Of a DNA stretch of 41,151 bases, positions 750 to 40,709 are shown one piece after another. Under the pieces are notes generated by a model. It searched no databases, was not told the origin of the DNA, and saw only the letters and a program-made list of their open reading frames with translations. Position numbers and translations under genes: made by a program. The DNA is from Jimgerdemannia flammicorona. Taxonomy: Eukaryota. The stretch covers positions 1 through 41,151 of the forward strand of contig RBNJ01000113.1 in NCBI GenBank assembly GCA_003990765.1, read 5' to 3'. Positions within the stretch are counted from its first letter, which is position 1, and every line of letters starts with the position of its first letter.

Positions 750-779
750 ATTGCACGGCATGTACAAGCAGTGCAGCCT

Positions 780-3924: not shown

Positions 3925-3926
3925 AA

Positions 3927-3941: not shown

Positions 3942-3994
3942 TAGTGTTAAGCGGCTATAGAATATATATCTCATAAATATATGCTACACTATAT

Positions 3995-8765: not shown

Positions 8766-8770
8766 TGAAG

Positions 8771-8917: not shown

Positions 8918-8923
8918 GTTGTG

Positions 8924-10128: not shown

Positions 10129-10134
10129 TACAAT

Positions 10135-11295: not shown

Positions 11296-13298
11296 AGGTC
11301 CCCAGCCCAGATGTCTTATATGACTTCCCGGCAGCGTGGTTTGGCCCTGATGTCCCCATTCCATATAGAGTAGCAGCCTCAACACCAATTGAGGATTTTG
11401 CCTTCATGTCTTCTCTTCCCAGTTCTCACTTAAGTCAATTTTTTGTCCCTTGATTTCAGATGTTTACTGAGGAGGGCTTTGTTACAGATATATCTCTACC
11501 TTGGCTTACCCCCGAGCTCACGTATATACTGAATTTTGGCCCTAAGTTTGTTCTCCCCAGGTCAGCATTGATGAACAGCACCATCGACCCAATTTCGTTG
11601 TTGTCGTTCCAATGGTATCTTGACCTTGCCACCTTCTGGACCTCTATGGATAATTCTGACGATGTCCTGGAGATCTCCACCTAGGTGCCATCTAAATGGC
11701 AACTGCCACACTATATGAAAAATATGCAAATTATGCTCCATATGAGTACTGCTTTAAATCAAGCTGTCTGACCCATGACAAATGTGTCCAGTGCACTTGT
11801 ACTGAAGAAGTTCCGATGCCTTCTTAAAGGTATCCATACTCATGATGACTTTACAGTCTGTCTTACTGACAAAAATCTGGGGTTCACTGTAATTCTGCGC
11901 GCTCTTTATCTCGATGGTCTTTGGTCTCTCCTTCATGATCCTGTGTATGTGAATGATCCCTCTATGATTGATGACATTAAGAAATCAGTGAGATTAGACC
12001 TATTGGGTCTACTCGAGTTCTGCATCAGTGATAGAAATTGTATGCCAATTTGGGAACACCTCATAGAGCCTAGCGATTGTAAGATGCCCATGTTTCATAC
12101 TTTGCCCAAGGTACACAAAGGGGCTCATGTGGTATAGCATCCTATCATTGGTACTTTTAACTCTTCCATGACTGAGATTTCATATTTCCTATCTTGCTTT
12201 CTCTACCTGTGGTCGGCCCATCTGCGTCATAATGTGGGTTATTCACATTATTCACCTCTACGTAATATGCTTGAACTGTTACAGCTAGTTCGATTGGATT
12301 ACCTAGACATGTCAGATTGCAACTATGTCGCTACTGGAGATTTCACTACCTTCTACATCAGGATTACATTAGATGAGTGCATTGACTGCCTTACCTTCTT
12401 ATCGACAGTGGCCTTCCCCTCTGGCTCTTTGCCACTTGAAGCCATTCTTGGCCTTGTCCACATTGTCATGACCCATATGACGTTCACATCTGCCATCGAT
12501 TCCTTCCACTCTGTGTCTAGTGTTGCTATAGGGACAAATTGTGCCCCGGATCTTGCCAACCTCATTGGTTTTGCTCATAAGTTGCATGCCTTACAAGTGC
12601 CTGACCATCTGCTAAGCCGAGCCATCGAAGCCGGGCTAAAGTTCTGCTGGTATATTGATGATCTTATTGTCTTTACACTTATGATTATGGACTTGGCCAC
12701 AATCTTTGGTGCCATATATCCTCCACATCATCATATTGAATGGGAAGTCTTGTCCACTGGACCGTGCCATTATCTGGACCTGGAAATCTGAGTTGCACTG
12801 TTCTGCACAGGCCGCTTTGCTAAGTTCCCACATAGTACACAGTTTGTTGACTAGTTGAGTAATCATCCTAGGAAGATACTCTATCTATACATTGTGAATG
12901 AGGCCTGCTGCCTATCACTGCTCTGCTTGTCTTACTGTGATTGGCTTGATGAGTGTTGGCTCTTAGCTGAGTTCCTGGTTCACAAGAAAGGATACCCTGT
13001 TAATGTTGTAACTGCTCAGTTGAGTTTGATTGATTGGCTTGAGGTCCGAACTTCACTTCTCACCCCTCTCCTTATTTCCCACCCCCCCATTCCCCACTTC
13101 GCTTTTCCTCCCCCATTACTTGTTGTCCAATATGACATAGCCCGATGGCTACATCAACAGCCTAACAAGACTCTATGTATCACTTTGCTTCATTTTGGTT
13201 TCCCTGCAACTGCCCAGTAACCTATCATTGCCCAGAAGAATGGTTTTATCATTCTTAATGCCGTCTCAAATACCAGCTTCGCTCTAAGTCCTTCTTGA
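11289..13298 (+). pseudogene. PLE reverse transcriptase ORF2 (right copy), 670 codons, -1 frame relative to ORF1
   Basis: Track ORFs at 11460, 11775, 12168 and 12855 are all in the same frame. Motifs: LPKVHK, GDFTTFY, GTNCAPDLANL, WYIDD, YLDLEI, SNHP. Confidence 0.88.
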
Positions 13299-13327
13299 AG
13301 GCCACACTGCTTGTACATGCCGGCGAT

Positions 13328-14034
13328 GTTTAAAAATGTGAAAAATCACCGAACAACCTCCGGTGCAAGGCTCTAGGCCTGATGCCTGCATACCTATACT
13401 CTATGATACCTGTCTACCTCTGCTCACTTCGCTCACTTCGGTGCCGAGGCTCTATTCCACGCTGGTCACGAGGCTCTAGGCCTGACACCTGCGCCTTTGG
13501 GTGCTGATGATTTTTAGGTTTTTAAACCTATAAGTGACAATCACATGACAATACGTGATGTGTCATTGGTCTAGTTCCGTTTTTAGCATTGTTTCCTATA
13601 TGTGTAACATTAGATCACATAACTGGAATATTTTTCCCAATTGTTACTATATCAGGTTTTTTAATGGCCCATCATGTGTGTAGATCGATGAAGCCCGATT
13701 CAGACCTTTGTTTGGATCGGAGCAAGGTCTGGGTACTTATGTACCTATCTGATTCTGGAATTCTGGGGTTAGATCCATGTCTTTGTTTATCTGAACTTTG
13801 TTTCTCATAATGAATAAAGACCACTGCGTATTGCAGTGCTGAGGGCGGGTTGCAGATCTATTGCACCTTGCTTCGGAAAACACTTTATTCTGCTTGCTTT
13901 TGTTCCATCGTGAAAATTTACATAAGATTACTGCTTCCTCTGTTTTGACCTCTTACTGCCAACTTTCATATTAGCCATAATAGTATCACATCTCGCTCTA
14001 AACTATTCCTCTATTATCTATTCATTTTATAATA
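13328..14034 (+). repeat. PLE terminal repeat, 3' end of right copy
   Basis: Reverse complement of 44-749, with internal inverted repeat 13328-13348/13508-13527. Followed by poly(A). Confidence 0.92.
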
Positions 14035-14501
14035 AAAAAAAAAGATGTAATATAACTCTTAATATTAGATATTATTTTAGACTTGAGCAATATACTAGTA
14101 TATCTTATCAAATCTAATATATCTAGCTATAGATATATCATATAGTTCTTACAGAATTTATAAGTAAATAGAGATATTAGAGACCCAAATTCTTATATTG
14201 TTAAGATATATATATTTATTTTAAATAGATTATATAATAGTTCTAGTTTCTTTAAGAGGGAGCAGCTAGGTTCTGATAATTCTAGTAAGTCTAAAGTAGC
14301 TCTAAACTTTATTTAAGTAGAGAACAAAAATAATTATATAAAATTGAAAGAAAGATCTGAAAGAATCTTGGAAAAGAAGAGAAAGGCTAAGAAATAGGTT
14401 CTTAACAAAGATGATTAATAGAATTCTACAATATTTCAAAAGGTTATATAACTAGCTAAGATAAGATACTTAGTACTGAAAAAAGATAAGAATATTCTAG
14501 T

Positions 14502-15138
14502 TAGTACTCTAAATAAATCAATTTAATCTAGATTGGATTCAGATTGGATTCAGATTGGATTCAGATTGAATCCCATCTAGATCAACTCAGATAGAAAATG
14601 AGCTGATCTGGATTAATTCAAATCAACTATTGTTTTGATTTCCAAATTAGACAATTAAATATTTACATCAATAACTTAATAAATAATTATTCAATTTTAA
14701 TAATCTTAGTGTTATTTGAAAGCTCTTAATAAGGCCTTTCTAATGATATCAAGAATATTAAAATCAGATTACACATTGCTGAGCTATTAAGGAAAATATT
14801 TTTTTGAAAAAAAAAAAATCCAAAATTGGCAAGTTGAATAATTTCCAAAATTGACAAGTCAGATATTTTTCTTGATAACTCAGTAATATATAATTCAATT
14901 GCAATGTTCTTGATATCATTAGAAAGGCCTTATTAAGGGCTTTCAAATAATATCAAAATCATCAAGATTATCAAAATTAAATAATTATTCATCAAGTTAT
15001 TGATGTAAATATTTAATTGTCTAATTTAGAAATAAAAACAATAGTTGATTCAAATCAATCCAGATCAGCTTGTTTTCCTATCTAAGTTGATTCAGATGGG
15101 ATTTGAATCTGATCTAGATTAACTTGTTCAGAGCACTA
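14502..15138. mobile_element. Non-autonomous hAT-family foldback element (MITE)
   Basis: Termini TAGTACTCTAAA/TTCAGAGCACTA match the large hAT TIR. Inverted arms are roughly 280-300 bp. The 8-bp TSD ATTCTAGT/GTTCCAGT differs by two transitions. Confidence 0.85.
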
Positions 15139-15769
15139 GTTCCAGTGATATCTTAGTACTAAGAGGAGATTTCTAGATATTCAGAAGATACTGAAATATA
15201 GTAGAATATTCAGAAAAAGATAAGAAAAGACTAGTAAAAAGATGTAAAAAAGTACTAAGACTAAGATATAATTGTAAAATTATTATATTCCTCTCTTTTT
15301 AAGAAATAATGTCCTTATTGAGTTCTTAGATAACATAAGACTAAATATACTTAACCAAAATTTCTCAAACTTATATTAATGAATTGGTGAGAACTAATCA
15401 TCCTTATATAGAATAGAGGACCTATTGTCAGACTAATCAACTAAAAGAGATTTAAACTTAGCTAGTAGCTCATTTTGATAGACTTTTTATTTATTAGATA
15501 TTCTGCTAATTCTAGAGTCTCAAAGTAAACTTTCAACATATAAGATACTAGTTATTACCATAGATTGTTGACAATCTAAGAAAGTTACTACAGAGATTGA
15601 ACAATATGTTTTGCCTTAAAGTCTTGAACTAGGTCTTAAGAGTTCTTTAGATTGATCAGTGATTTTCAGTAGTACTCCAAATGAGTCAATTTGAATCAAA
15701 TCTGGATTTGATTCATCACATGATAGTTTGATCCAAATCTCAAATCTGAAGTCATCTGAATTAACTCAA

Positions 15770-16032
15770 ATTAATCTGAATCATCCCATCTGAATCACCC
15801 CATCCAAATCATCCATCTAAATCACCCCATCTGAACTACTTAATCCAAATTACTCAATCCAAATCACTCAATCTAAATCACTCAATCTGAATCACTCAAT
15901 CTAAATTACTCAATCTGAATTACTTAATCTAAATCCTCCAATTCAAATCCTCCAATTCAAATCCTCTAATTCAAATCTTTTAATCTGAATCCTCATCCAA
16001 ATCCTTCAATCAAATCCTTTAATCCAAATCCT
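15770..16032 (+). repeat. hAT subterminal ~14-bp tandem repeats (copy 1)
   Basis: ATC(C/T)(G/A)AATCACTCA-like units; a CpG-depleted version of 40250-40625. Confidence 0.85.
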
Positions 16033-16305
16033 CCACATGACTTATATACTAGATGCATCTATATATACAATATACATATATGCAAACATATGCATATATG
16101 CAAATATACACATATACATAAAAATATACAAATACACATCATTTTCCTGGATACCTTTCTCCTATACAATTCACATTACACCAACTTTAAGCAATGATTT
16201 TTGATATAACTCAGAGAAAAGATACTATAAAAATATCATCAAGCAAGAGTTCCAACAGGTATACTGAGTCAGATAGATCTAGTGCATTTGGCTGGCAGTA
16301 TGTAG

Positions 16306-18250
16306 GGAGAGATTATGGACTAGAGATGGGGAATTTTGGAGAATTGAAGGGTGGAGAAGGCTCTGGAGGAGGTTCAGTATCCAGTGGAACTGGGGGAAGG
16401 CCTAGACCCTCTAGCTTTATAGACAAGGTAAAGGTGAGTGGATGGCCAGCTGGAACTAGAGCTGGTACTGCTGAGGGAAAGGACAAGGCTAGTATTGAGA
16501 GAGGGAGCAGTACTCTAGTAAGAGATGTGAGTATAGGGGCTAGAGGTGCTGTGGCTGGGGGTTGGACTGCTGATGGGAGTATGACAGAAAATTAGAAAAA
16601 AAAAAGAGATATGATGGCTGATGGTAAGGTAGGGTAGAGGTTCCCAATGTGGAAAGAGGACCTAGCAGATGGTGTGATGGGGCTGGCAGTGGCACTATTA
16701 CTCAAGAAGTTGATTTTAGAGTTTATGGCTACCTTATACTTCCAGGGCTTGGCAGTGATAGTGAGGATGGTCCTGGGGATTATCTTGAAGCAGGTGGCTG
16801 GAGCCACCTCAGTGAAGTTTCTGAAGAAGCTAGAGGGGGTTGAGGTGGGCTTTGAGAAGGTAGGCACACTAAATGAGGCTCTGAAGACTAGAGTAGTAGT
16901 TGGGGAAGTGGTGGTCCCTATGGTATATTGCCTAAGGTGGGACCTCAGGGTGGTTCAGTTGCTAGTGAAGGGGGTGCCTACAGTGATGGTGGTTAGGATG
17001 AGGAGGAGGGTTGAGGAGATGATGGCAAAGTATAGTGATATAGTTGATATTGGTTTTCAGATATGGGAGGGGACCACTATTAGGACTAGAAATGTTAATA
17101 TCAGGATTTGCCTAGTAGGAAAGGAGGTCACTGGGAAGATGAGTGACTGGCCAACAGTAATGCTTTGGGGGGCTTACAGCTGTCAGATGTTGAGGGTAAA
17201 AGGGAGTGAGGAGGAGGAGGAGGAGAATCTGTTGGAGGCTCTAGAGGAGATGAGTGGAGCTGTCAAGTGGTGGACAAAGATATGAAAGTTGTATGAGGAG
17301 TCAATACATCTGGTGATTGTCAATGGAAAATATATTTGTACTGACAAGAGGTAGTGAGAGAGGGCTCAAGGGTATAGGAGACAGAGAGAGCTGCTGGTGA
17401 GAATGGAAGGAGAGGTGAAGTTGAAGGCTGGGGGTACTGAGAAGTCTGCAGAGGTGGAGGTGAGTATCTGGGCTAGTAAGAGTGGAGGAGATGTGGAGGA
17501 GGGCCTGAGGGAAAGGAGAAGACACTATACAAGGACTCATTTGCAAATAGTACATTTGAAGTCTGGGAACAGGTCATGGATAACACTCCCTCTCTAGTCT
17601 GGCAGAGTCCAGCTACAAGGGGTCAGACAGCAGAGGATGAGCAGATGAGAGGTACTCAGTGGGTACACTTTAGAGTTCCTGACATGACAAAAGGTAGACA
17701 GATGGTGGCTGTTAGTAAGGATGAGCTGGTGGATGTCCCAGAGGAGGGGTGGTATGAGACAGCTAGTGTAGGAGCAGATAGATGCAGAAAGACCAGGGAT
17801 ACTGGGAGAGAAGAAGATAGAGAACCTGCTGTGGATGAGCAAGATAATGGATAACTTTGCAGCTGAGAAGTTGGGGAAAGTGAACTTGTATGTGATACCT
17901 GAGGAGTATTGGGCACAGATTCTGCATAGAGATGGGGTAGTGGGGATACTGAAGGCAGAGATACTTGCAATTCTCCTAGAGGAGGAGGGATATGAGGTTG
18001 ATAAGGAGAGGGAGACTGAACTGGCAGTCATTACTGGTGAGCATGCAGCCTACTGTTGGACAGAGCATTATGATTTGTAACTCTGACAGTAGACATATCT
18101 GGAGTATCATAAGGACTTTGAGGAAAAAGAGAATAGGGCAATGGCTGAACTTCTGATTGAGTTGGAGATACAGGTGGCAGAAGAGAAGGAACTGGCTGCA
18201 GAACATAACTTGGATTTGGCACAGGAGGAGTTGAATGCAGATTTGTAGAG
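16306..18250 (+). pseudogene. LINE ORF1 (RRM-like region), boundaries approximate
   Basis: VQLLVKGVP...EEMMAKYSDIVDI...GTTIRTRNVNIRI resembles the Tx1/L1 ORF1 RRM pattern, and it lies upstream of ORF2. Heavily disrupted. Confidence 0.5.
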
Positions 18251-18251
18251 A

Positions 18252-19254
18252 ATGAGATTGATAATCAATATTATTTCTTATGAATAGTACAACTAATATT
18301 TTCTCTCTAAATGTGAATAGGTTAAGGGGTTCTGGATATAAGAATATTTTTACTTGGCTTAAGGGATTGGAGGCTGATCTCTTTTTACTACAAGATGTAT
18401 AGTGTGAGGATGAGGAATATCAGATGGAGTAGACTAGAGAATGGGGAGAAGTTACTGCTTGGATTAACAAAGTAGTGATTCTGGTGAGGAAGGGTAGAGG
18501 TGATTTGGGCAGAATCAAGAGCTGGGATGACTGTTTGGTCTGAGAGAATGGCATCAACCTGGGTGGAAATCAGTGAGGGTTGGCTCCTGCTACTGCCCTG
18601 CAGTTAGGGGTGAGCAGATTGAGTAGATTAGGGATCTATTAGAGGAGGATATTCTCTTGAAGAAAGGTATTGATGTTCTGGAAGGTGACTTTAATATGGT
18701 GCAAAATTCACAGATGAATAGAACTGATGGAGGGAGGAGTACAGGTGGGAGGAGTAGTGGTCTGGATAAGTGGGAGGAGGTAGAGAACCTTAGCTTCTTA
18801 GGGGATATGGGTAGAATGTAGTGGGGTGATAGGAGGGTCTATACACACTGGGTGAATAGACTGGATACGAGAATTGACTAGATTCTGATGGCCAAATATT
18901 GGAGTGCTGATGTTTGGAGGACTCTGGAGGTAGTATGGTGCCCATGGTCTGATCACTGGGGGCTATTGGATCAGGGGCAGTTTGGGGGGAGTGGAGATAG
19001 ATCCAGACATTGGTGCCTTAACTTCTCTCTGCTGGCTGAGAAGGGGTTGTGGGACCCATGGGTGGAGGACATCCAAGTGAAGATCACTAACTGGATATGT
19101 GAGAGTTCATCTGTAGGTATCTATTGGATGAGGTTGAAGGAGACTGTGAGGGTTTATTGAGAAGGAGCTAGTAGAGAGACTAGGAGGCAGAGAAGAAGCA
19201 AGTAAGGTATACTTCTAATAGGCTGATTAGATTGTAGATAGAATGGGCTGATTT
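18252..19254 (+). pseudogene. LINE ORF2, AP-endonuclease part
   Basis: GDFN (~18684), RID.IL (~18868), SDH (~18948) and WCLNFSLL motifs. Confidence 0.8.
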
Positions 19255-19541
19255 TGTAAGTGCACAACCTCTAAGCCACTGAATTACATGTCACCCTCTG
19301 AATAAGCCACTGAAATCACACGTGATCTCTGAACAAATCTGGAAATAACTTGCTTGATCATGAAGCTGAGTCAAACTGAAGTCACAGTGCACAAAGCTGA
19401 GTTAAACTGAAGTCATAGAACACAAGATTTATACAAGCGGAATCTTACCAATCAGGATCAAATGCATATATACCAAGCACTGAGATGTGTCAAAACAGAG
19501 AACCAAAACAAACAATAACTATAACTGCCAAACACACAAAC

Positions 19542-20598
19542 ATGACCACCAAGATCTATACCTGTATCCATGCTGACATTTGGAATGCCATTGTCAATGG
19601 AGCCACACCCCCTCTTCCCCTCATGAATATCCATAGCCTAGCACCCCTCTACTTTGTGGAAGTCTGATGGAATGCTCTGAACATGCTTAGCGAGGCCCAC
19701 CAAATCGGACAAATCTCAAGCTACTACCAGATTGGCCACCTCCTGGAAGATATAGTTGAATACCACCATGATACAGACATTACCCAGATGTCCCAACACC
19801 AGAAGCTCATTGCCCGCAAATATCAAGAACTCTTCTACAAGTACAGTACTATTATTTCCTACCTCCAAGTTACCACTAGCGAAATGGTCGCTACTCTGTC
19901 CTATGGCCAAATCGATGACATGATACAAGAACTCAACCACAAGTACCTCAAGTACATTGAAACTACAGACAGAATCTTCCCACACCCCAATGATCACATC
20001 CTGCAAATGCCCCAAGTTGGATACACCATGAAGGACATCTATGATATAATTCACTTTGATGAAGATGAAGCAGAAGACAATGATCCCTCTGATGCTGACA
20101 TGACCTCTAGCCAAGGATCTCTGCCAAACCTGATCACACCACCGACCTTGCCAATGAACTTATAACAATTCATAACAGCCTACAAGACTTATTGAGACAA
20201 TGACCACTGGCATAAATACCAACCTGCATTCACCCCCGATTACTTCAACTACAATGAAGAGACCGGAGAACATAACCTGTACCTTCAGACAACCCTTGAG
20301 ATTGAACCAACCACTCCACTACCTGAGTATGAGTAATATGAACCACAGCCACCAGCCTACTACAACCCCATGACTCATAGTACTATAACCTATAGAAGGT
20401 ATGCAGATAGTGAAACCAATGAAAGCAAAGATGATGCACCCCTCCTTCACCCACCAACATGGAGACGAAGTTCCAATGTATTATTACCTCAGTGAACAAG
20501 GAGAAGTAATCCACAAACTACTTTTCCTAGACAACTACTTTATCAGAGATGATGCAATTGATAGTGATGTCATTGAGGACTACCCAGACAGTGCCTAA
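19542..20598 (+). pseudogene. LTR-embedded ORF, unknown protein (5' LTR copy)
   Basis: Track ORFs at 19485 and 19683 share a frame that continues through point stops. A ~40-bp deletion at ~20460 shifts the tail (ORF 20401-20598). Confidence 0.7.
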
Positions 20599-20786
20599 AC
20601 CATAAATAGCCTAGCAGTCATAGTATAGTTAGAGTAGCCTTATATGATGTGACTGTGAACTGACTCAGCAGTCAGACGATCTCTTGACCTATCAGATTAC
20701 ACTTGTACTACATGACTGTATTCCGACTCAGCAAAGCACTTAGTGCTATATCTATATTCAGCATAGTCCAGATAGCTCCTCACTAG

Positions 20787-20792
20787 TATAAA
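20787..20792 (+). promoter_or_regulatory. Candidate LTR TATA box
   Basis: TATAAA, conserved at 29168-29173 in the 3' LTR, downstream of the LTR ORF. Confidence 0.6.
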
Positions 20793-21257
20793 TACTCCCT
20801 CCCCCAGACCTCAGAATCTGAGACTCGAATATACAAGAACATTTCTGAATACTTCCCCACAATATTCCTTCACACAACTACTCCTAGTATAGAAATATCA
20901 TGAATAGCGAATAAAATTACTCAAATAACCCACAAATCACTCTTAAGTAAATCCACTCTCCATTAGGTCCCACTCCTAACCCTGTCATAAAATTTTCTAA
21001 TTGGGTATTGTCTGCAGCGATATGCCAATTCAACTAAGCTGGTCTTAGTTTCTTGAACTTCCTGAAATATGGAAAATCCAAACATCCAGAACTAGTCTGA
21101 AAAAGGGACTTTGGTTGAGATGTTAACCCAAACTTGAAATCAATGAGCATAGAGGATGTACTCTATATGAAATTGATCTTGACCATAAGAAAACAGTCTT
21201 CCAGAATATCCAGAACTTCCAGAAAACCCTTCCAGAACTATGTAACAGTTACCCTAA

Positions 21258-23300
21258 AAAGCAACCCTCTTACAACTTGGTAACAGTGATTTACAATCCA
21301 ATTCCACTTCAAGACACTTCCTCACCCTGCTACAAACCCTTCTGAGAATTCCTACAAGTTGGTATAAAGCCCAACCTCTGAACTGGAATTTATCCAAACC
21401 ATCTGACAATCTGGAGAGAATTGAACCTGATATACAAGGACAAATTGACCTCCACACCTGCAACAAGTGGGATAAACTTCATTCAAAGAAAGAAGTACTC
21501 CGGTTAAACCAGCAAATAGGCAAAACCCTATTCACCGAACTCCTTGCACTACACCCAGCAAGTCAAGACAAAGAAGGTCTTATTGAAGCCTTCTTTACTC
21601 TTCTCAACAAGAGTTTTGTCAGCTCCACAAATCCGAGCGACCTAGGACAACTAGCAGCAGTCTTTCTAGCCTTAGTTCCTCATGAAGCCCAAGCCTCTGT
21701 AGCCAAGTGACTCAACTTTACTGACTTTCACCATACTAGGACCAAAACTGCATTATACTATCGATTCCAGAATAGCAAGGCCCACCATATTCTTAAAGAA
21801 GAAGCAAGAGAAACCCTTCATCAACTACCTGACCCCAAACCTAAAGCAGGCCCTGCTACAGCCCTACCTGAATCTGAAACCAATACCGAACCTGAACTTG
21901 ACTTTGAATTAAGTCCATCTGAAATCAGATATATAACTGATTCTGTCTACTTTAATGCTGAGCAAACCCAATTACATGGGGACCAAACCAAGGAGGAGGA
22001 GGAGTATCTCACTGAATTCGATCCCAGATACACCACCGAAGGAGACACACTCCCATCAGGACAGAATACACCTACACAACAACAAACAGCTATCTATCAA
22101 GCCCTTACTCCAGATCTACAACTACTACTCCAGCAACTTATACAGACCTGAAGAACCCCATCACACTCTGCACCAGTACCTCAAGTAGTACCAGTAACAC
22201 CACTACCAGCAGTCCAACTGCCTCCAGCAAACAACATGGCACACCAACAGATTCTTGATCTCACAGCCCAAGTAGCTATAATGGCAGCAACCATTACTAC
22301 CTTAGCTGAACAGACCCAACCTACTAAAAATCTGAGCCTACCTACCTTCAATGGTACTGCACAAGAAGTCCAAAGCTTTATTAGTATAGTTGACACCAAC
22401 TTCGAAGCCAATCAATGGACCAATGAGTGAGTTGCTGACCACATTCTGACAAACAATCAAGATCACACCCTGGAACAACTCTTTGCTACTACTACAGCCT
22501 ATGTCCACCGAGTTGTTACATTCTTCTGAGGACCTGCTGAAGAATGGTGGTGAACCCTTTCTGAAAAACCCCTTACATGAGATACCTGACCTGCAGTAGT
22601 TGCTCAGAATGCAGCAAACAATGCCCCAGGATATAGAGCCCATCCTGCAGCCCCTAGACTCAAACAACTCATGATTGCTCAATACTGCAGTGAAATCATG
22701 ATTGCCGAATCTCGAGTAAAACTCCGCAACCTCAAATTTGATATACATGATAAAGAAGAATTTGAAACCTTCTGTATAAAACTTGAGTCACTCCTGAACA
22801 CTGTTGGCCTAGGATATATCGCCAATGATGAAGCATGAAATGGTACAAGAGCAGACCATTTATTCAATGCCCTGTCTGAATAGCTTACTAGAAAAATCCG
22901 AGAACAAGGCCGCCTAGTTGGTTGTGACCACCAACAATGGTGCCTGGCAAGAATCAAGACTATGGTCAAGCGAATCCTAACAGCTGGACCAATTCTGCCC
23001 CAAAGACAATTCAACAACAAGGAAAAGACTTGGACCAAGAAAGAAGAACCCAAGCATGAAGCATCCTGAGCTCCCTCCACATCTACCTCTTGGACACCTA
23101 GAAATCACAAACCCACCCAGCCAAGTACCTTCAATAAACTTACTGAGGGTGAAAGAAATGAACTTCGAAGAAGCGGAGCATACTTCTATTGCCGAAAGAC
23201 AGGACACATGGCCAGTGCCTGCCCTAACCAAAAACCCCAAACAGTAACAAGAGCAACTGTTATCACTCTGCACCACCTCAACAACCTGACCACCAGAACA
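21258..23300 (+). pseudogene. gypsy gag with long in-frame N-terminal extension
   Basis: The frame runs from the LTR edge to ATG 22236 with only two TGA stops. LPTFNGTAQEVQSFI follows, and the knuckle (C>Y)FYCRKTGHMASAC is at 23181. Confidence 0.78.
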
Positions 23301-23710
23301 CTGGACTTTGTCAAGTTAAGACAAACTACTAAGGCCCCAACCAAAGGAAGTCAGAAAGCAGCTGGATATGACCTATATGCAGCCAAAGAAGCTACAGTTT
23401 CTAACTGAGAAGTCAAACAAGTCTACACAGGAATCAGCATCCAAATCCCTGAAGGATATGTTGGAAGAATATGCTGTCGCAGCAGCCTAGCATTAAAAGG
23501 ACTCTCAGTAGAAGGAGGAGTCACTGATGAGGATTATACAGGTGAAATTATTGTTCTCATCTGAAACTACAGTTGGACACCCTTCAAGATCCCTATTGGT
23601 TTTGGCATTGCCCAGATCCTATTCGAAAAAATCGAGTCAACCCTGACAGTCAAGGAAGTCCCTGAACTACTGCCCACCCTCCAAGGATCCAAAGGATTTG
23701 GCTCATCAAA
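23301..23710 (+). pseudogene. dUTPase domain, in frame with gag
   Basis: All five trimeric dUTPase motifs are recognisable: AGYDL, RSSLA, GVTDEDYTGEI, IAQIL, (R>Q)GSKGFGSS. Confidence 0.92.
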
Positions 23711-23929
23711 CAAGGCCCCAGCCCAACCTACCATGAGCAAAGAAGAACAATTCTACAAGAATATTGAAGATGGATATGTACCAAGTGGCCAATGCTCTCA
23801 TGGTATTGGAATGTACTCTTCCCAAATGATTAATGATTGCTTCTCTTATGTCAATGAACTGGCACAAGAAGAGCTAATAGAAGAAAAGCTCCTACAACTG
23901 AAATCACCACTATTGGATCAGACAAACTG

Positions 23930-26900
23930 CTCACACTTAAGGCTTTTGTTAACTGAGCACCTGTCAAGATTATGATAGACAGTAGTACCTCAGGCAACTT
24001 CATCAATGAAGAAACAGCCAACAGACTTAAGATCTTCACCTCTCCGGTACAACAAACTCAAGCAGTTGCTACAGCTGATGGAACCTCACATGTTATTAGC
24101 AAAGAAGTCTGCAATCTACCCTTCCAAATTGGTGACTACCAAGTACATGTTACCCTCCAAATCATACCACTTCCTGACAATGAAATCATCCTTGGGACTC
24201 TATGGTTAAAACAAGAGAACCTTATGATCGATTGGGTAAACTATTCTCTGACCATCAAGAAAGGATGCCACAACTTCAAACTGTAAGGCGAAAAGGACCC
24301 ACTTAATTCTGGTGACCCTGGACCAAAGATCACCCACATCAATAAGCTACAACTTAAGAAATTGGCCAAGAAATGCCCTCTCTTCGCCATCTCCATCTGC
24401 CCATCCAAAGGAGAACCTGAGAACTCTGAAGATGATTTTTCCAAAGTTGACAGCCATGTCAGACCACTACTCCAGAAATTTCAAGACATATTCCCAAAGA
24501 AACTTCCAAAAGGCCTATCTCCTAAACGAGCAGTAGACCATGCCATTAAGACTATCCCAGATGCCAAACCAGCCTTCAAGTCAATCTACCACATATCTCC
24601 AAGAGAAATCGATGTTCTCAAGAAAGAAATTGATGAACTCCTAGAACAAGGGTTCATCAGACCCAGTGTATCACTCTATAGTGCACCAGTCCTCTTTATT
24701 GTCAAAAAAGGAGGAGACCTGCGAATGTGCATTGACTACTGCGATCTCAATGAACAGACCATCAAGAACTGTTGCCCACTACCAAGGATTGATGAAATAT
24801 TCGATAGGCTCACCAACCTGCAATTCATGAGCTCCTTTGATCTGCAAAATAGTTACTGGCAAATTGCCATGAAAGAAGAAGATATCTACAAGACAGCCTT
24901 CTGAACTTGCTATGGATACTTTGAGTTCCTGGTTATGCCCTTTAGCTTAACTAATGCTCCAGCAACCTTCCAGACACTGATGAATACCATTCTGCATCCA
25001 TACCTGGACAAATTCGTTGTTGTCTACATTGACGACATCCTAGTCTTCAGCAAAACCCTGGAAGAACATCTTGAACACCTTGAACTAGTACTACTGAAAC
25101 TCTGAGAAAACTGACTCTTTGCAAAACTCAGCAAATTTCTCCTGAAAGAAATCCAATTCCTTAGACACATTGTCATGCCAAATAGAATTAAGGTGGACCC
25201 CAGCAAAATCTCCGCAATCAAGGATTGGCCCAGACCCAAGAAGCTGAAAGACCTCCAGTCATTCCTGAGATTAGCAAACTATTACAGGCAATTTGTTGCC
25301 AACTTTGCTAAAATCACTACCACCCTCACCCAAATGACCAAGCATAACAAGAAACAAGAACAACCCTGGACCATAAAATAAGAGAAAGACTTCAACAATC
25401 TTGTAACTTGGAGACCTGAGCAAGATACCACCTTTCAAGCACTAAAGGATGCCCTGATAACCACTCCAGTACTTCAAGCAGCAAACTCTGCACTACTATA
25501 CGAAGTTACCACTGATGCCTCTGACCTAGCCCTTGAAGCAGTACTCATGCAAGAAGGACACCTTGTGGCCTATCACTCCCACAAGTTCAATGATGCCAAA
25601 ATCAACTACACAACTCACGAGAAGGAAATGCTAGCCATCATAGACACTCTGATCAAATGGTGACTATATCTAGAAGAAGCACACTTCACCATATTGACTG
25701 ACCACAAATCATTAGTCAATATCAAGACACAGGCTACCCTTTCTCGAAAGCAAGCCAGATGGATGAAAGTCCTCACCAACTTTGACTATGAAATCCAGTA
25801 CCACTCTGGTAAGGAAAATATTGTTGCCAATGCAATCTCCAGACTACTAATCGAAGAGGTTATCCAAACTCTCACCTTGATTACAAACTCCATCATAGAA
25901 TAAATTATCACAGCATGTGCTGATGATAAGAAAGCTCAAGCACTGCAAGAAATCCTGAATAGTGATGATGCCAACAAGCATACACAGTATCATCAATACC
26001 AACTGAAGGACAATGCTATCTACTATAAAGACAGACTATATGTCCCAAACAACTGAGACCTCCAAAGGACTATCCTATTCAAATGTCATGATGCCCCTAC
26101 AGCTGGACATTTAGGATTTGATAAATGTTATGAAGTTATCTCCCGAAACTTCTATTGGCCCCACATGGCAGATCAGCTCAAAACCTATATTACTTCCTGT
26201 GATGCCTGCCAATGAAATAAGTCCTCAACACTAGCAAAACCCAGCTTACTTCACCCTATCCCAGTACCATCTGCTAATTGGGAACAAATCTCTATGGACT
26301 TCATTGTACAACTACCCCGAACCAAGAATGGGAAAGATGCAATTATTGTCTTTGTGGACTATCTCAGCAAACAAGCCTACTTTGTGCCTACTACCACTAC
26401 TGCAACAGCACCAGACATAGCCACACTCTTGTTTGACAATATCTTCCACTATTATGGTCTTCCTAAGATCATTGTTAGTGACCGAGACCCGAAATTTACC
26501 AGCCATTTTTGGAAAGCCCTCCATGCACACCTTGGAACAAAACTTGTACTATTCACAGCCTTTCACCCAGAAACTGATAGCCAAACTGAAAGAATGAACC
26601 GAACTCTGGAACAAATGCTAAGGAACTATGTTTCCTACAGACAAGATAACTGGCATGAACACCTTACTGCAGTCGAGTTTGCTTATAACAACAGCAAGCA
26701 AGCCTCTCTTAGAATAACTCCATTCTTTGCTAATACTGGACAAAACCCAAACACCCCTTTAACACTTATCCGAACAACTAAAGAACCCTCTACAGTTGAA
26801 GCTGTTGAAGAATTCTTACTTCAAATGTGCAACCTAAGCCAGATTGCCATCAAGAATTTATCACGAGCTCAAGAACAACAGTTACAGTATGTTAACCAAC

Positions 26901-27361
26901 ACCACTGAGAAGAAACCTTTGATATTGGAGAAAAAGTTCTACTGGACATCAGAGGATACCGAGTTGACAACCTCAAGCACAGACCATTTACAAAGCTGAA
27001 CAGCAAGTTTATTAGACCATTTGAAGTCATTGCACAAGTCTCTCCAACCTCCTACAAATTGGTGCTACCAGACAACATTAAGATTCACCCAGTCTTTAAT
27101 ATTCAACATCTCAAGCGATACAATGAGAATGATGATGAGCTATTTCCAAACCAGACTACCAAACCACCTGCACCTGTCATCATTAATGATCAAGAAGAGT
27201 ATGAAGTTGAACAAATCCTCAATAAATATGGCAACAAGAGCCACCCTGAGTACCTTGTCAAATGGAAAGGTTACCCGATCCATGATACAACCTGGAAACC
27301 CAAGACCAATCTTCAGAATACTACTGACCTAATTCAGGAATATGATTCCTTGAACAACTAG
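23930..27361 (+). pseudogene. gypsy pol: protease, RT, RNase H, integrase, chromodomain
   Basis: MIDSSTSGNFI, LRMCIDY, YIDD (~25025), TDAS, TDHKSL, HDAPTAGH/CDAC, MDFIVQLP, IVSDRD, HPETDSQTER, and chromodomain EYEVEQIL...YLVKWKGY...TWKP. Confidence 0.95.
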
Positions 27362-27563
27362 AACCAAATACTCTGCATCTATCCATACATACTATATATT
27401 ATCCTCTCAAACATTATAATTATTGCAAACCAAACCAAGAACTCAGCAAAAATACTGACCCTCTGGAAAAATGGCAGAACTGAAGGCAAGCCTATTCTCC
27501 CTGTATCACTGAATAAAATTAGAAGGCTCTGACAAGGACATTGAAAGCTAAGAAGGGGAGAGT

Positions 27564-29627
27564 TGTAAGCGCACAACCTCCAAGCCACCAAATTACATGT
27601 CACCCTCTGAACAAGCCACTGAAATCACATATGATCTCTGAACAAATCTGGAAATCACCTGCTTGATCATGAAGCTGAGTCAAACCGAAGTCACAGTGTA
27701 TAAAGCTGAGTCAAACTGAAGTCACAGTGTATAAAGCTGAGTCAAACCGAAGTCACAGAACACAAGATTTACACAAGTGGAATCTTACCAATCAGAATCA
27801 AATGCATATATACTGAGCACTGAGATGCATTGAAACAGAGAACCAAAACAAACAACAACTACAACTGCCAAACACACAAATATGACTACCGAGATCTATA
27901 CTCATATCCATGCTGACATTTGGAATGCCATTGTCAATGAAGCCACACCCCCTCTTCCCCTCATGAATATCTATAGCCTAGCACCCCTCTACTTTGTGGA
28001 AGCCTGATGGAATGCTCTGAACATGCATAGCGAGACCCACCGAATCAGACAAATCTCAAGCTACTACCAGATCAGCCACCTCCTGGAAGATATGGTTGAA
28101 TACCACTATGATACAGACATTACCCAGATGTCCCAACACCAGAAGCTCATTGCCTACAAACATTGAGAACTCTTCTATGAGTATAGTACCATTATTCTCC
28201 ACCTCCAAGTTACCACCAGCGAAATGGTCACTATCCTGTCCTATAGCCAAATCGATGACATGATACAAGAACTCAACCACAAGTACCTCGAGTATATTGA
28301 AACCACAGACAGAACCTTCCCACACCCCAATGATTATATCCTGCAAATGCCCCAAGTTGGATATGCCATAAAGGACATCTACGATATAATCCACTTTGAT
28401 GAAGATGAAGCAGAAGACAATGATCCCTCTGATGCCAACATGACCTCTAGCCAAGGATCTCTGCCAAACCTGATCACACTACCGACCTTGCCAATGAACT
28501 TACAACAATTCATAACAGTCTACAAGACTTATTAGGACAATGACCACTGGTACAAATACCAACCTGCATTCACCCCCAATTACTTCAACTACAATGAAGA
28601 GACTGGAGAACACAACCTGTACCTCCAGACAACCCTTGAGATTGAACCAACCACTCTACCACCTGAGTATGAGTGACATGAACCACAGCCACCAGCCTAC
28701 TACAACCCTGCAACTTATAGTGCTATAACCTATAGAAGGTATGTAGATAGTGAAACCAATGAAAGCGAAGACAATGCACCCCTCCTTTGCCCACCAACAC
28801 CTTATCCAGCATATGAGACAGACGATGTCATCTTGTGGGACAGAGACGAAGTTCCAATGTATTATTACCTCAGTGAACAAGGAGAAGTAATCTGCAAATT
28901 ACTTTTCCTAGACAACTACTTTATTAGAGATAATGCAATCAATGGTGATGTCATTGAGGACTACCTAGACAGTGCCTAAACCATAAATAGCCTAGCAGTC
29001 ATAGTATAGTTAGAGTAGCCTTGTACGATGTGACTGTAAACTAACTCAGCAGTCAGATGATCTCTTGACCTGTCACATCACACTTGTACTATATGACTGC
29101 ATTCTGACTCAGCAAAGCACCTAGTGCTACATCCATATTCAGCATAGTCCAGATAGCCCCTCACTAGTATAAATACTCCCTCCCCCAGACCTCAGAATCT
29201 GAGACTCGAACACACAAGAACATTCCTGAATACTTTCCCACAATATTCCTTCACACAACTACTCCTAGTATAGAAATATCATGAATAGTGAATAAACTAC
29301 TCAAATAACTCACAAATCACTCTTAAGTAAATCCACTCCTTGTTAGGTCCCACTCCTAACCCTGTTACGAAATTTCCTAATTGGGTATTATCTGCAGTGA
29401 TACATATGCCAATTCAACTAAGCTGGTCTTAGTTTCTTGAACTTCCTAAAATATGGAAAATCCGAACATCCAGAACTAGTCCGAAAAAGGGACTTTGGTT
29501 GAGACATCAACTCGAACTTGAAATCAATAAGCATAGAGAATGTACTCTATATGAAATTGATCTTGACCATAAGAAAATGGTCTTCCAGAACTATATAACG
29601 GTTACCCTAAAAAGCAACTCTCTTACA
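27564..29627 (+). repeat. gypsy 3' LTR (2064 bp)
   Basis: TGTAAGCGCAC...CTCTTACA; aligns to 19255-21274. Confidence 0.95.
27882..28979 (+). pseudogene. LTR-embedded ORF, ~365 aa unknown protein (3' LTR copy)
   Basis: ATG 27882 to TAA 28979 is 366 codons in one frame. The internal stops are TGA/TAG that are explicable as C>T or G>A changes. Confidence 0.75.
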
Positions 29628-29632
29628 GATTT

Positions 29633-32270
29633 GCTTTCTTCTGATGAGGTGGAGGATTGGAGGTTAGAGTGGGTGAAATTGGAGATGGTGAAGCTACAAC
29701 AGGTATTGAGAGAGGAGAAGAAGATTTGTATGAAAGGAATGGCTACCAGACTATGGTAGCAGGGGCTTGAGGAGGGAGAGCAGCCTACTAGGTACTTGTC
29801 TAGGCTCCTCTGAGCTAGGAGGGTGTGGCATTGATGAGATGGGGTCTTTAATACCAAAGGGAATATAGTGTATAGCATACAACAGATCTTGGAGGTACTG
29901 AAGGAGAGATGGTGGGGTCTGTGGAGTGAGGAGAAAGGGGGTACAGATGAAGAGGCAATTGGAGACATACTGGAGGAGTGGGAACCACTGTAAGTAGAGA
30001 GACTTAGTGACTTGATCATACCAGTCCAAGAGGAGGAGATCCAGAGAGTTCTTATAGCAACTAAGCTTAGGACAGTGCCAGGAGAGGATGGGTTATCTTG
30101 AGACTTCTGGAAGAAGATGGCAAGGGTCTCTGGAGTGTTAGGAGAGATGGCTGCCCTCTGTGACTATGTTCTTCTAAATGGCAAGTGGGTTGAAGAGTAG
30201 GACTTGGGGCTGGTAGCCTTATTGTATAAAGACAAGGGGAGGCAGGAGGACTGGAAGAACTGGAGGCTGATTATGCTTCTGGATATAGACAGGAAGATAG
30301 TGACTAAGGTGATTGTTGTGAGACTTTAGAAGGTTGCCCAACAGGTGCTAGGTGAGGAGCAGTGGGGCTTTATAGGAGGCAGACTTATCAGAGATGGGAC
30401 TGCCTGGGTGTATGACATTATTGAAGGGGTCCAGGCTTATAGACTAGATGGTAGACTGGTCTTTTTGAACTAAGAAAAGGCCTATGACCATATTCAGTAG
30501 GTATGGCTGAGTAAGGTGCTGGATATAATTGGTGTTCCCCTATGTTTTTGGGCTTCTATATTGAATCTGTTAGAGGGCAGTAGAGCAGTGCTGATATGTA
30601 ATAGTCACTGGGGGTTAGTATTTCCCTTGGGAAGAGGAGTTCCTCAGAGAGACCTGCTGTCTTCTATCTTTTATGCTCTTTCATTAAAACCTTTAATGAA
30701 TAGGATATGATAGAAGATGGCAGGGCTCTCTATATATGGTGTGATGTGGAAGATGGGGACCTTTGTGGATGATATAGTAGTTGGACTTAGATCAGTGGCA
30801 GATATTGAGGCACTTAAGGAGACAGTGGAATAGTATGAGGCATACTCTAGAGTGAAACTCAACTGACATAAGTGTGAGACAATGGTGTTAGGGAATGGGC
30901 TAGTAGGAGGGAATGTCATTGGAACAATTGTTCCTACAAGAGAGATAGTATGGTATCTAAGTATTTTCCTTTCTATATAGATCTGTCTTGCCATGGGTGT
31001 GGTGGGAGAGGAGGGTGGCCATTTGGGGGGAGGCTCTTAGAGATTGGGGGGGTCACCACATCTCTCTAGTAGAGTGGGTGTCAATTCTGAATATCTACTA
31101 GTTCCCCAAGCTATAGTATGTGGCCTATCACTTAGACTTCTCAGCTTGGGTGGTAAAGAGGCTGACAAAACTGGCTAGAGATTGGATTTGGGCAGAGAGG
31201 AGGTCCTAGATCAGTTGGGATACTCTGGCATTACTGATAGTTAGGGGAGAACTAGGCCTTGTGGATTTCCCTAAGCAACTACATTGCCTGCAAGCTTGGT
31301 AATTGAAAAGGGCTGTTGAACTACAGGGAGGAGATTGAGTACTGCTGATGCAGAAGGTGTGGAAGATGAGATTCTCTCCTCGAGGGTCTTTAGGATATTT
31401 GCTCTCTCTAGTAGATCTGAATGAAAGCCAATGGCTATAGTATAAGGGCTTCTGGTGGGGGGTGGTGGATAGAGCACACTGGATAGGCCTGCACTGGTGA
31501 GGCAATGAGGGAGAGGTGCTGTGGGGTCCAGCTATGTGGTGATGGGACAGACTGCTTCTGGGGAGTGTTCTATTTACTGAGTTTGATATTGGTGAGGGTG
31601 TGGAGTATCAGTAGAGACTTGGCCAGAATCTTTGGCCAAGTAGTTAGCAGACAGTAAGGATTAGCAAGAAGTGGGACTGAGTAGGAGTCTGGTTATGGAG
31701 TGCTGAAGTGCAGAAATGGCTTTCTCCCAAGTTCTGGGTAGTATGGTAGTAGATGCTATGGAGGAATATTATGTTGAATTTCCATGCTAGATATCTGGTA
31801 AATGGTGGCCAATTAGATTGTGAGGAGTGTTATAATATAGAGCAGGTTGGGGGATTTGTGCAAATGCCAGAACATTGGCTAGGAGAGTATAAGGTTCTGG
31901 GGGACTTTTGGGTAGTGGTAGGGACCTAGCTGGATGTAGCAAGGAGGCTGAATAGAGAGAGAGGTCACTGGGAGAATTTGAAATCTTGACTAGTGGGAGG
32001 TATTGGCAATGATTGGCTCACTGTAAGGTGGGTTTTAATAGTATGGGTAGGATTGGCTGGACATTAGCTCTTTGTTTTTGAGGAAGGGTGATAGATGAGT
32101 ATATAGGAGAAGTTATTAAGGTGGGAGGAGTTGTTGGGGGATCTGCTAACTGAGTGGTGGGTTGGTTGGGGTCCCCAGAGTGGGCAACATCACCATCTAG
32201 TGGAAGAGATCTATAAATAGAGTGGTGGGTGGGTGGAGATGGTGTTTGACAAAGTGGTCTTTCATTGAGA
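29633..32270 (+). pseudogene. LINE ORF2, RT and C-terminal part
   Basis: PGEDG (30078), LYKDKG..EDWKNWRLIMLLDIDRKI, QWGF, EKAYD, GVPQRDLLS, FVDD (~30762) and C-terminal CEEC (~31818). Confidence 0.85.
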
Positions 32271-37988: not shown

Positions 37989-38279
37989 GATGTGGCAGAA
38001 AAGAACAAAGAAAAAAAAAACAAAGAAAAGAACAAAAGAAGGAGAGGGAACAAAAGGAAAGAGTGATGTTACCAAAGTGTGACAGGAAAAAAAAACAAGA
38101 GCAAAATAAACAAAAGAAAGGGTGATGTCACCAAAGATTTCAATCCAGATGGATTAATCCAGATCAATCCAGATCAATCCAGATCAGATCATGAGACCAA
38201 TCTGAGTTGATTCAAATCTATTACATGATGAATCTGAATCGAATCTCATCTGGATCAACTCTATCCATTCAGAGTACTA

Positions 38280-40150
38280 GTTTCCAAGTAGTATTATATT
38301 CAGGATAGTACATCTACTTAACTAGATATTTAGAACAATAATAGCAGATTCATTTGTTGAGGATTTTCTCAACTTCATACTTAATATGATCTTTAATAAT
38401 CATAGAGGTAGATAGCTTAGAAATTTAACCAGAGTAAAGCAGTGACTGGTTCTAGATCTTGAGGTGTGACATATGAAAGACTAGATATACTTTCATGATT
38501 TCAGATAGCTTGAGACAGTAGGAGGATATAGAGACTTGTTCAGTAATCTCAAAGAGTTCAATATACTTGAGTTGGAACTTATTCAATAAGTGGTTGACTT
38601 GAGATTATATCTTAAGGTTCTTAGTAGATAGTAGGACTTGATCATTAATAGTATAGGTAACATCTAACATTTCTTATCAGCATACTTGGCTTGATACTAT
38701 TGGGCCTTCTGGAGATTTACAGTAGTAATCTTAAGTAGCTCATCTATTTTATCTATAAAGTTCTTAATAGTAGAAACTTATATTTGACTGTTTTTCTTAA
38801 AAGGAACTAGACTTACATATAGAGGTCTCAGAATTTTGACCATAGAGTAGTTAAAAAGGAGAAAGACTGGTAGATAATTAGATAATATTATTATATATAA
38901 ATTCTACATAAGTTAAGTAGTGATCTCAATTATCTTACTTATAAGAAATATAATTCCTGAGTATTTGTTTTAAAGTTCTGTTTATATGCTCAGTTTGTCT
39001 ATCAGTTTGTAGTTAAAAGGTAGTAGATATAGTCAATTGGATTTCCAAAGTCTTGAAAAGAGTTTGTGAGAAGTAACTAATGAACTTAGAGTTATAGTTA
39101 CTAATAATTACTCATAGTAGACCATAGTAATATAAGATAGACTTGAAGATTCTTATAATCTCAGATGCAGTAACTTTAATAGTAATTGGTTTAGCAACTA
39201 TAGTTTTGGTCAGGTGGTCAATAAATATGATAATAGTATCAGTACTAGATTGAGTTTATAGTAGCTAAGTTATAAAGTCTATTATAACTTATTTGAATTT
39301 CTTGATTAGAATTGATAGTAGTTGTAGCAAACTAGCTAGTGCTTAGTTGGTAAACTTATTGCACTAATAAAGATTATAGCTAGCAATATAGTTCTTAATT
39401 TCCTTAACTATATTTAACTAATAGTAGTGATACTGAATATTCTTGATAGTTTTCTCAATTCTAAGGTAATCAGTAAGAGGGAAGTTATAGTGTTCTTATA
39501 GTATTATATAATATAGATTCATATTATCAAGTAGATAGACTTTGTCTTGATGATAAATCAGATTATCCTCAATAGTATATATATCCATGAGCTCATTTGA
39601 GAAAACTCTAATGACAACAATATCTTATTTATAAACTTGTCTGATTTAGTCTAGAAATTCAGATGCCAAAATAACTTATATAATTTAATGAGGTCTGGAC
39701 ATCTGAATAAAGTATCTGGTACTATAAGTATCTTGCCAGACTTGTAAATAATCATCAGATTAAAGGTTTGAAGCTTGAGGCTCTACTTAACTTATAGACA
39801 TAACAGAGTAGATTAGATATTGATATACTTAAGAGATTGATAATCAGTAATGATATCAAACTCAATATCTTCTAGATAATATCACTAGTGATCTAGTGCA
39901 TATATTATTATCAGTAGCTCCTTCTTATAGGTGGCTAGCTTTTGTTCAGCTAGGACTAACTTGTGGAACTCAAAGGCAATAGAGTGATACTCTTTACTAT
40001 CATCTTATAATAGGACTGCTCTAATGGTAAAATTTGATACATTAGTAGTAATGGTGAATTTCAGACTTAGATCTGTATTATGTAGGACTGGAGTATGGGT
40101 CAGATAGTTCTTAAGTTCTTGAAAGGCTTATTGATAGAAGAGGTCTCAGG
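38280..40150. other. Very AT/TpA-rich relic sequence, contiguous with 14044-14501 and 15139-15669 before the hAT insertions
   Basis: No ORFs of 60 aa or more, virtually no CpG and dense TAG/CTA. The TSDs show these three blocks were once adjacent. Its original identity is not recognisable. Confidence 0.55.
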
Positions 40151-40249
40151 TAGTGCTCCGAATGAGTCAATTTGAATCAAATCCGGATTCGATTCGTCAC
40201 ATGATGGTTTGATTCGAATCTCAAATCCAAAGCCATCCAGATCAACTCG

Positions 40250-40625
40250 GATTTAATCTGAATCGCCCCATCTGAATTGCCCCATCCAAATCACCCATCT
40301 GAATCACCCCATCCAAATCACCCATCCGAACCACCCCAATCCGAATCACTCAATCCAAATCACTCAATCCAAATTGCCCCATCCAAATTGCCCCATCCAA
40401 ATCACCCATCCGAATTACCCATCTGAACCACTCCAATCTGAACCACTCAATCTGAATCACTCAATCCGAATCACTCAATCCGAATCACTCAATCTGAATC
40501 ACTCAATCCGAATCACTCAATTCGAATCCTCCAATTTGAATCCTCCAATTCGAATCCTCCAATTCGAATCCTTCAATCCAAATCCTCATCTGAATCCTTC
40601 AACTGAATCCTCCAATCCAAATTCT
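40250..40625 (+). repeat. hAT subterminal ~14-bp tandem repeats (copy 2)
   Basis: ATCCGAATCACTCA / ATCCGAATCACCCC / ATTCGAATCCTCCA units. Confidence 0.9.
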
Positions 40626-40709
40626 CCACATGACTCATATGCTGGACATGTCCACAACACAATACACACACACGCATACACACACACACATACACATGTA
40701 CACGCAAAC

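Follow-up and report, generated by a model that had tools for sequence, protein, structure and literature searches.

Two copies of what is judged to be a protein-coding gene were recognized inside the long terminal repeats (LTRs) of a Ty3/gypsy retrotransposon from Jimgerdemannia flammicorona. The retrotransposon is a chromovirus, and it occupies positions 19255-29627 in a 41,151-nt stretch of DNA (contig RBNJ01000113.1 of the assembly GCA_003990765.1), which is referred to here as the window. On the evidence of codon usage and of two intact relatives, the reading frame in the LTRs is a genuine protein-coding gene, which would be intact in the active lineage of the retrotransposon and is decayed in this copy. 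It is very likely that the gene is real and that it is borne by the LTR. The whole account is considered likely as well: an accessory gene owned by the retrotransposon would lie entirely within its LTR, and C-to-T and G-to-A decay after integration, resembling repeat-induced point mutation (RIP), would have turned both gene copies in the window into pseudogenes.

Reading frames in the two LTRs

The gene copy in the 3' LTR (27882-28979, forward strand) comprises 366 codons and is interrupted by stops at codons 42, 95, 218, and 265. Its counterpart in the 5' LTR (19542-20598, forward strand) has stops at codons 42, 208, 218, and 265. The alignment of the two LTRs clarified that 41 nt are missing after position 20459 in the 5' copy, and the last ~45 codons are consequently out of frame. 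An earlier note on this DNA, made from the sequence alone, had described the 366-codon frame in the 3' LTR and its mirror in the 5' LTR. Both were found where the note had placed them, including the start and the end of the 5' copy, but the deletion and the frameshift in the latter had been overlooked. The 3' copy contains 5 stops when the terminator is included, compared with 18.6 ± 4.1 (minimum 7) in 2000 composition-preserving shuffles. The remaining five frames of the same stretch contain 8-36 stops. A tblastn search with three proteins against the window revealed no paralogue outside the two LTRs.

The stops are distributed between the two copies in an informative manner. Codon 42 is TGA in both the 5' copy (19665) and the 3' copy (28005). 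Codon 95 is CAA in the 5' copy (19824) and TGA in the 3' copy (28164), while codon 208 is TAA (20163) and CAA (28503), respectively. At codon 218, TGA (20193) is paired with TAG (28533), and at codon 265, TAA (20334) is paired with TGA (28674). The complementation of stops between the copies and the sharing of the first TGA had been described correctly before, and the pair at codon 265 is added here. The intact relatives described below read Arg at codon 42, the shared TGA, and at codon 95, the TGA/CAA pair (both in the relative P0003); at codons 218 and 265, they read Trp and Gln, respectively (both in the relative P0002). Because the relatives read Arg, Trp, or Gln at these positions, the stops are interpreted as products of decay by transitions. 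The ancestral codons CGA and TGG, which had been deduced from the paired stops, agree with the Arg and Trp residues of the relatives.

The codon usage of the LTR frame was scored as a log-likelihood against that of the gag-pol of the same element. The LTR frame scores +0.25 per codon, and pol in its own frame scores 0.247. All five other frames score below zero, and the parts of the LTR flanking the gene score about zero. An antisense open reading frame (ORF) of 132 codons is present on the minus strand in both LTRs (19716-20114 and 28056-28454); as its codons score negatively (−0.28 to −0.30), the ORF is regarded as shadowing the sense frame. The density of stops in the LTR gene (4 in 365 codons) equals the level in gag-pol, where 12 stops per 830 codons are observed in the gag-dUTPase frame and 12 per ~1170 codons in pol. 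Such equality would be expected if the LTR gene, gag, and pol had been open at integration and had then decayed together.

Relatives of the LTR protein were sought by an exhaustive HMMER search of 1.84 billion representative proteins and by three word-indexed searches of 5.8 billion proteins. Two real relatives, designated as P0002 and P0003, were found. Two further candidates, P0004 and P0005, matched only weakly and locally; they are repetitive proteins of bacterial type and were dropped. P0003 is 128 aa in length and 81% identical to the LTR protein; it is intact over residues 1-128 and has the same start Met. Where it differs from the two copies in the window, most of the differences (18 of 24 and 16 of 22) fit C-to-T or G-to-A decay of the window, and thus P0003 is regarded as close to an undecayed member of the family. 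P0002 is 247 aa in length, 60% identical (E-value 1e-100), and intact over residues 115-364. Its alignment requires just two in-frame gaps of 2 residues each, its C-terminus lies one residue from the position of the window stop, and several blocks are strongly conserved between P0002 and the window protein.

The divergence of P0002 was compared with neutral simulation. Simulated to 60% identity, the frame is expected to gain 3.9-5.3 new stops, and the probability of gaining none is 0.5-1.4%. Among the 95 replacements in P0002, 47 (0.49) are positive in BLOSUM62; in the simulations (three sets of 1000 runs), the mean fraction was 0.29-0.32 with a standard deviation of 0.045, and the maximum was 0.46. 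No DNA locus of either relative was found in metagenome contigs, with two alignments of which one was N-terminal, in viral contigs, or in contigs of prokaryote genomes.

The protein can be divided into two parts. The N-terminal ~150 residues are near neutral (isoelectric point 6.28 in P0003) and are predicted to be helical, with low confidence. The C-terminal part is strongly acidic and rich in Tyr and Pro: the isoelectric point of P0002 is 4.05, and its 247 residues include 46 Asp and Glu, 10 Lys and Arg, 23 Tyr, and 24 Pro. Cys is absent from both P0002 and P0003, and therefore the LTR protein has no zinc knuckle. No hydrophobic leader, signal peptide, or hydrophobic segment was recognized by eye. 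The searches of Pfam and of the Protein Data Bank (PDB) did not place the protein in any known retroviral accessory family, and to judge from its sequence, it belongs to no known family.

The gene is also present in other members of the family. In four sequencing runs from two studies, the family is abundant, contigs cover the gene stretch to about the same depth as the internal region, and on both sides of the gene there are contigs that continue into it from the adjoining LTR sequence. At codon 208 (20163), where the 5' copy has TAA, the majority of contigs have CAA in three of these four runs. On the basis of the family cover and of the contigs joining LTR and gene, the gene segment was not inserted in this copy alone. 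A single contig of the run X3 passes from the end of the 5' LTR (21274) directly to the RNase H region (25666), skipping 4391 nt; this joint, seen at a depth of 3.5, may be a deletion derivative without the region from gag to reverse transcriptase.

The host chromovirus, its decay, and its surroundings

The element is a Ty3/gypsy chromovirus of 10.4 kb, as indicated by its Pfam domains and the anatomy of its LTRs. It is flanked by a target-site duplication, GATTT, whose left copy (19250-19254) and right copy (29628-29632) are identical over 5 nt. The 5' LTR (19255-21274, forward strand) is 2020 bp and the 3' LTR (27564-29627, forward strand) is 2064 bp in length; they are in direct orientation, 92% identical, and both begin with TGTAAG and end with CTTACA, thus showing the TG...CA termini. 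A candidate primer-binding site on the forward strand, TGGTAACAGTGATT (21278-21291), is located 3 nt past the end of the 5' LTR, where the sequence TGGTAACAGTG begins. The polypurine tract AAGAAGGGGAGAG (27550-27562, forward strand) is located one base ahead of the 3' LTR. The right border of the element is further supported by contigs of two studies that contain the flanking repeat without the element, because these contigs end exactly at position 29626.

The region between the LTRs is 6.3 kb, and its proteins were read with stops as X. The gag frame, which precedes pol, contains a zinc knuckle and a dUTPase domain. The CCHC zinc knuckle (23181-23222, forward strand) reads Y-x2-C-x4-H-x4-C in translation; the Tyr at the first Cys position is as expected from a G-to-A change in a TGY codon. 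The dUTPase domain (23331-23708, forward strand; PF00692, E-value 1.5e-30) follows the zinc knuckle and precedes the protease; it represents a second gene acquired by this chromovirus. The pol frame (23918-27346, forward strand) has 12 internal stops and encodes, in one frame and in this order, protease, reverse transcriptase, RNase H, and integrase with its H2C2, core, and SH3 domains, as recognized with Pfam. A chromodomain (PF00385, E-value 1.9e-13, 27200-27346) follows at the C-terminal side of SH3_Tf2-1. The identification of the host element as a chromovirus, made earlier from the sequence, is thus supported by the Pfam domains including the chromodomain.

The whole copy of the chromovirus is dead. 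Between the two LTRs, 155 of the 160 substitutions are transitions, and by context they are observed 99 times at CpA, 27 times at CpG, 19 times at CpC, and 10 times at CpT. Only 76 CpG remain. The strong bias of CpA over CpT, together with the known signature of RIP, suggests that the decay was caused by fungal RIP rather than associated with symmetric CHG methylation.

The comparison of the two gene copies with each other gives a ratio of nonsynonymous to synonymous differences (pN/pS) of 0.53, and the synonymous share is 0.32, while 0.35-0.39 is expected from unconstrained context-weighted transitions. The differences between the 5' and the 3' gene copies are neutral, as expected of decay after integration. 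The earlier note had proposed that a dN/dS ratio of about 1 would speak against a functional gene. The LTR pair did come out as neutral, but this measure is inapplicable within one insertion: both LTRs were identical at integration, and therefore dN/dS between them is uninformative on selection in the active lineage.

The chromovirus is inserted in another repeat (16001-19249 and 29633-32000), which is present without the chromovirus insertion in contigs of the two studies. This target repeat is strongly asymmetric between its strands, with a GC skew of +0.3 to +0.5, and nearly devoid of CpG, with an observed/expected ratio of 0.01, and no Pfam family was found in it; the Pfam scan of the flanks used stop-free ORFs of at least 90 codons. 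The window also contains two LTR-bounded element copies of ~4.4 kb in head-to-head orientation (44-9634 and 9610-14055). Their LTRs are ~0.5-0.7 kb in length and 88-90% alike, and the ORFs in their interior of 3 kb, the longest of which comprises 296 codons, matched no Pfam family. The first copy (44-9634) is interrupted by a Ty1/copia gag-pol (3977-7694, recognized with Pfam), and this insert is bounded by a direct repeat of 126 nt (3799-3924 and 8640-8765). Two blocks of the window (14001-16047 and 38001-40640) are AT-rich, with a GC content of 23-31%, and the CpG value is 0.0 in the first of them. Within these blocks, related short tandem or satellite-like repeats are found at 15666-16047 and 40146-40640. 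Rfam and tRNA scans of the window gave no matches.

Candidate expression signals and alternative explanations

Several candidate signals are found around the gene in each LTR, all on the forward strand. Upstream of the frame, Tandem Repeats Finder detected a tandem repeat of 31 nt containing TGAGTCA, with 2.0 copies in the 5' LTR (19363-19425) and 2.8 copies in the 3' LTR (27672-27758), where TGAGTCA is present in each unit. The motif TGA[CG]TCA occurs 4 times in the 3' LTR, compared with 0.25 times in shuffles, although three of the four represent one repeated unit. The motif scan also detected a candidate TATATA 75 nt before the ATG in both the 5' copy (19467-19472) and the 3' copy (27807-27812). 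The leader following the TATATA at 19467 is rich in A and C, with 35 A and 17 C among 68 nt. Downstream of the gene, the sole TATAAA of the 5' LTR (20787-20792) is a candidate promoter of the genomic RNA. The two LTRs do not differ within the block around it, which is the best preserved part of the LTR, and it is aligned with the TATAAA at 29168-29173 in the 3' LTR; the tandem repeat of the latter contains two more TATAAA, at 27699 and 27730. The sole AATAAA of the 5' LTR (20910-20915) may be the poly(A) signal at the border between the repeat region (R) and the downstream unique region (U5), and the AATAAA of the 3' LTR is at 29291-29296. The AATAAA is 123 nt past the TATAAA; the TATAAA and the AATAAA follow the stop of the gene at distances of 190 and 310 nt, respectively.

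If these signals are read in the usual way, the upstream unique region (U3) would extend from 19255 to ~20820 and include the gene, followed by a short R and a U5 of ~340 nt. These borders are drawn tentatively, because the hexamers are not above chance. The earlier note had placed the gene in U3. The gene indeed lies inside both LTRs, while its position in U3 is deduced only from the downstream TATAAA and AATAAA. The TATA-like element at 19467, which had been assigned to the gene itself, and the LTR TATA at 20787 downstream of it are both present, but neither of them exceeds its frequency in shuffles.

Provided that the gene is real, it is reasonably likely that it resides in U3 with its own promoter and is transcribed into an LTR-contained mRNA of ~1.4 kb. 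The 31-nt repeats with TGAGTCA, the TATATA, and the A/C-rich leader would constitute this promoter, upstream of the promoter for the genomic RNA, and the mRNA would start and end in one LTR. As the gene is located in the LTR, reverse transcription would write two copies of it in each new insertion. Both LTRs, and in principle solo LTRs as well, would be able to express the gene.

Some observations weigh against the interpretation of the frame as an LTR-borne gene of the element. No RNA run containing the stretch of the LTR gene was found, and TATAAA, AATAAA, and TATATA are no commoner than in shuffles. Pfam contains no family matching the window copies at an E-value of 0.01 or below, or matching P0002 and P0003 at an E-value of 10 or below, and the best match of a sequence profile against PDB had an E-value of 0.24 and was rejected. 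AlphaFold2 gave models with a pLDDT of 31.2 from an alignment of four rows and of 46.5 from an alignment of three rows, which are too low for a fold search. The search of the ESM Atlas with P0002 gave no usable match, and the stored model is poor; P0003 remained under the recognition bar. The searches of 5.8 billion and 1.84 billion proteins yielded no more than two relatives. Each of them is a fragment encoded on a contig of ~1 kb, and the LTR location is seen only within the family of this element. P0002 begins at residue 115, so that the intact N-terminal part is known from the close relative only. The databases hold open frames only, and the finding of open relatives is thus in part a matter of ascertainment; the comparison of the relatives was made at the protein level.

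Three other explanations were weighed. A piece of a gene from the host or from another mobile element could have been captured into U3 and be useless to the retrotransposon, and if the capture were recent, it would still look coding. Against a capture stand the codon usage, which equals that of gag-pol, and the exhaustive protein searches, which revealed no relative among host genes. The 60% relative keeps the frame, the position of the stop, and conservative replacements, which would require long-term selection, and the start codon is retained in the 81% relative. On the other hand, U3 tolerates insertions, the LTR protein is without any known retroelement domain, and its family is very narrow in the databases. 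Contig pieces, in a small sample, differ from the window by 7-17% over the gene and mostly by 5-9%, up to ~19%, over gag-pol, which is also compatible with a capture. In balance, a useless captured fragment is considered rather improbable. It is far more improbable that the frame is open by chance in non-coding LTR DNA: the 2000 shuffles never reached so few stops, the codon usage is specific to the sense frame, and the two relatives are intact with conservative replacement. The antisense frame, which is fairly open too with 8 stops, and the lack of support from family, fold, or RNA would be in accordance with a chance frame.

The remaining explanation accepts the gene but assigns it to another position in the transcript. 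The upstream TATATA and TGAGTCA could be the promoter of the genomic RNA, and the frame would then be the first cistron, ahead of gag, in a very long R (or in U5). This layout is suggested by the repeat, the TATATA, and the A/C-rich leader directly preceding the ATG, and by the downstream TATAAA being statistically undistinguished. It would require an R of ~1.4 kb, which is unusual among LTR structures, and an upstream cistron of 366 codons would hinder the translation of gag. The single TATAAA with a single AATAAA 123 nt further on, in the best preserved block, fits the usual arrangement of U3, R, and U5. The leader-cistron layout is therefore less likely than the U3 layout, and only a small probability is given to it.

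Comparison with known systems and implications

The nearest analogues of an LTR-borne gene are probably retroviral. In mouse mammary tumour virus (MMTV), the superantigen gene sag is located in U3 of the LTR, and its product is a membrane glycoprotein. The gene reported here resembles sag in being a frame of several hundred codons in an unusually long LTR, upstream of the LTR promoter, which is a candidate in the present case. As with sag, there are two copies per provirus, and the gene would be accessory, unneeded for the core replication enzymes. In contrast to sag, it is encoded by a Ty3/gypsy element and not by a vertebrate retrovirus, its product is acidic and has no hydrophobic segment recognizable by eye, and there is no sequence similarity, as no Pfam family was matched.

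A partial analogy is found with nef of HIV and SIV and with bel/bet of foamy viruses. These genes overlap U3 of the 3' LTR, and the targets of their products are in the host, not within the virus particle. In foamy viruses, a second promoter is located internally. The use of U3 sequence by accessory frames is common to nef, bel/bet, and the present gene, but nef and bel/bet start internally and overlap U3 only partly, whereas here the whole gene and its candidate promoter are inside the LTR. Double-copy retroviral vectors have a transcription unit placed in the 3' U3, which is duplicated by reverse transcription. A cassette of promoter and gene in U3 would be shared with these vectors; the vectors are engineered, and the cassette of the chromovirus would be natural.

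The function of the product can be suggested by analogy only tentatively. Acidic, aromatic-rich tails occur in activation domains. Because of this tail and of the analogous retroviral genes borne by U3, the product may be a trans-acting helper of the element, either similar to an activator or countering silencing or defence, but this is a guess of rather low probability.

The term "LTR-encoded" is used in a paper on MMTV (PMC12548423). Among Ty3/gypsy elements of plants, Ogre, Retand, Tat, and Athila have extra ORFs, which, like the present gene, are kept within lineages and have obscure functions. In the portions available of two papers on them, these ORFs are described as internal, either before gag, after pol, or in antisense (PMC7264820, PMC6431247). 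The accessible text of the former, a mini-review, does not contain the phrases "in the LTR", "within the LTR", or "inside the LTR" (PMC7264820), and the latter lists, in its available part, gene capture only downstream of pol (PMC6431247).

Chromoviruses with a dUTPase are reported from fungi, at least in the accessible part of one paper: PosPlaTy3 from Postia, elements from Phanerochaete, and Tmt1 from Tuber (PMC2864245). The element in the window is similar to them in combining a chromodomain-containing Ty3/gypsy backbone with an acquired dUTPase, which is a comparison by description and not by kinship. It differs from them in that no LTR-borne gene is described for these elements in the same part of that paper (PMC2864245). 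The U3 of the Podospora element crapaud is variable, shorter than 200 bp, and non-coding, according to the available text (PMC10787394). The full-text literature search, subscription papers and supplements aside, revealed no Ty3/gypsy or copia element with a protein gene housed in its LTR.

The LTRs of retrotransposons are treated as regulatory only and are masked before gene finding, so that any gene located there would systematically escape detection. If the LTR gene described here is under selection, the strategy of placing an accessory gene in U3, used by a few retroviruses, would have arisen also in Ty3/gypsy elements outside animals. Each insertion would then carry two copies of the gene, and solo LTRs, which are usually deemed inert scars, would become possible units of expression. 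In an extended form of this idea, the LTR would be a self-contained cassette of enhancer repeats, TATA, gene, and poly(A) signal, and both LTRs as well as every solo LTR would continue to produce a trans-acting protein of benefit to the family, which might, for instance, boost LTR transcription or blunt genome defence; at present this extension is considered unlikely, though not negligibly so. Since it belongs to no known family, the LTR protein is a new candidate for a player in the conflict of transposons with the genome defence of fungi.

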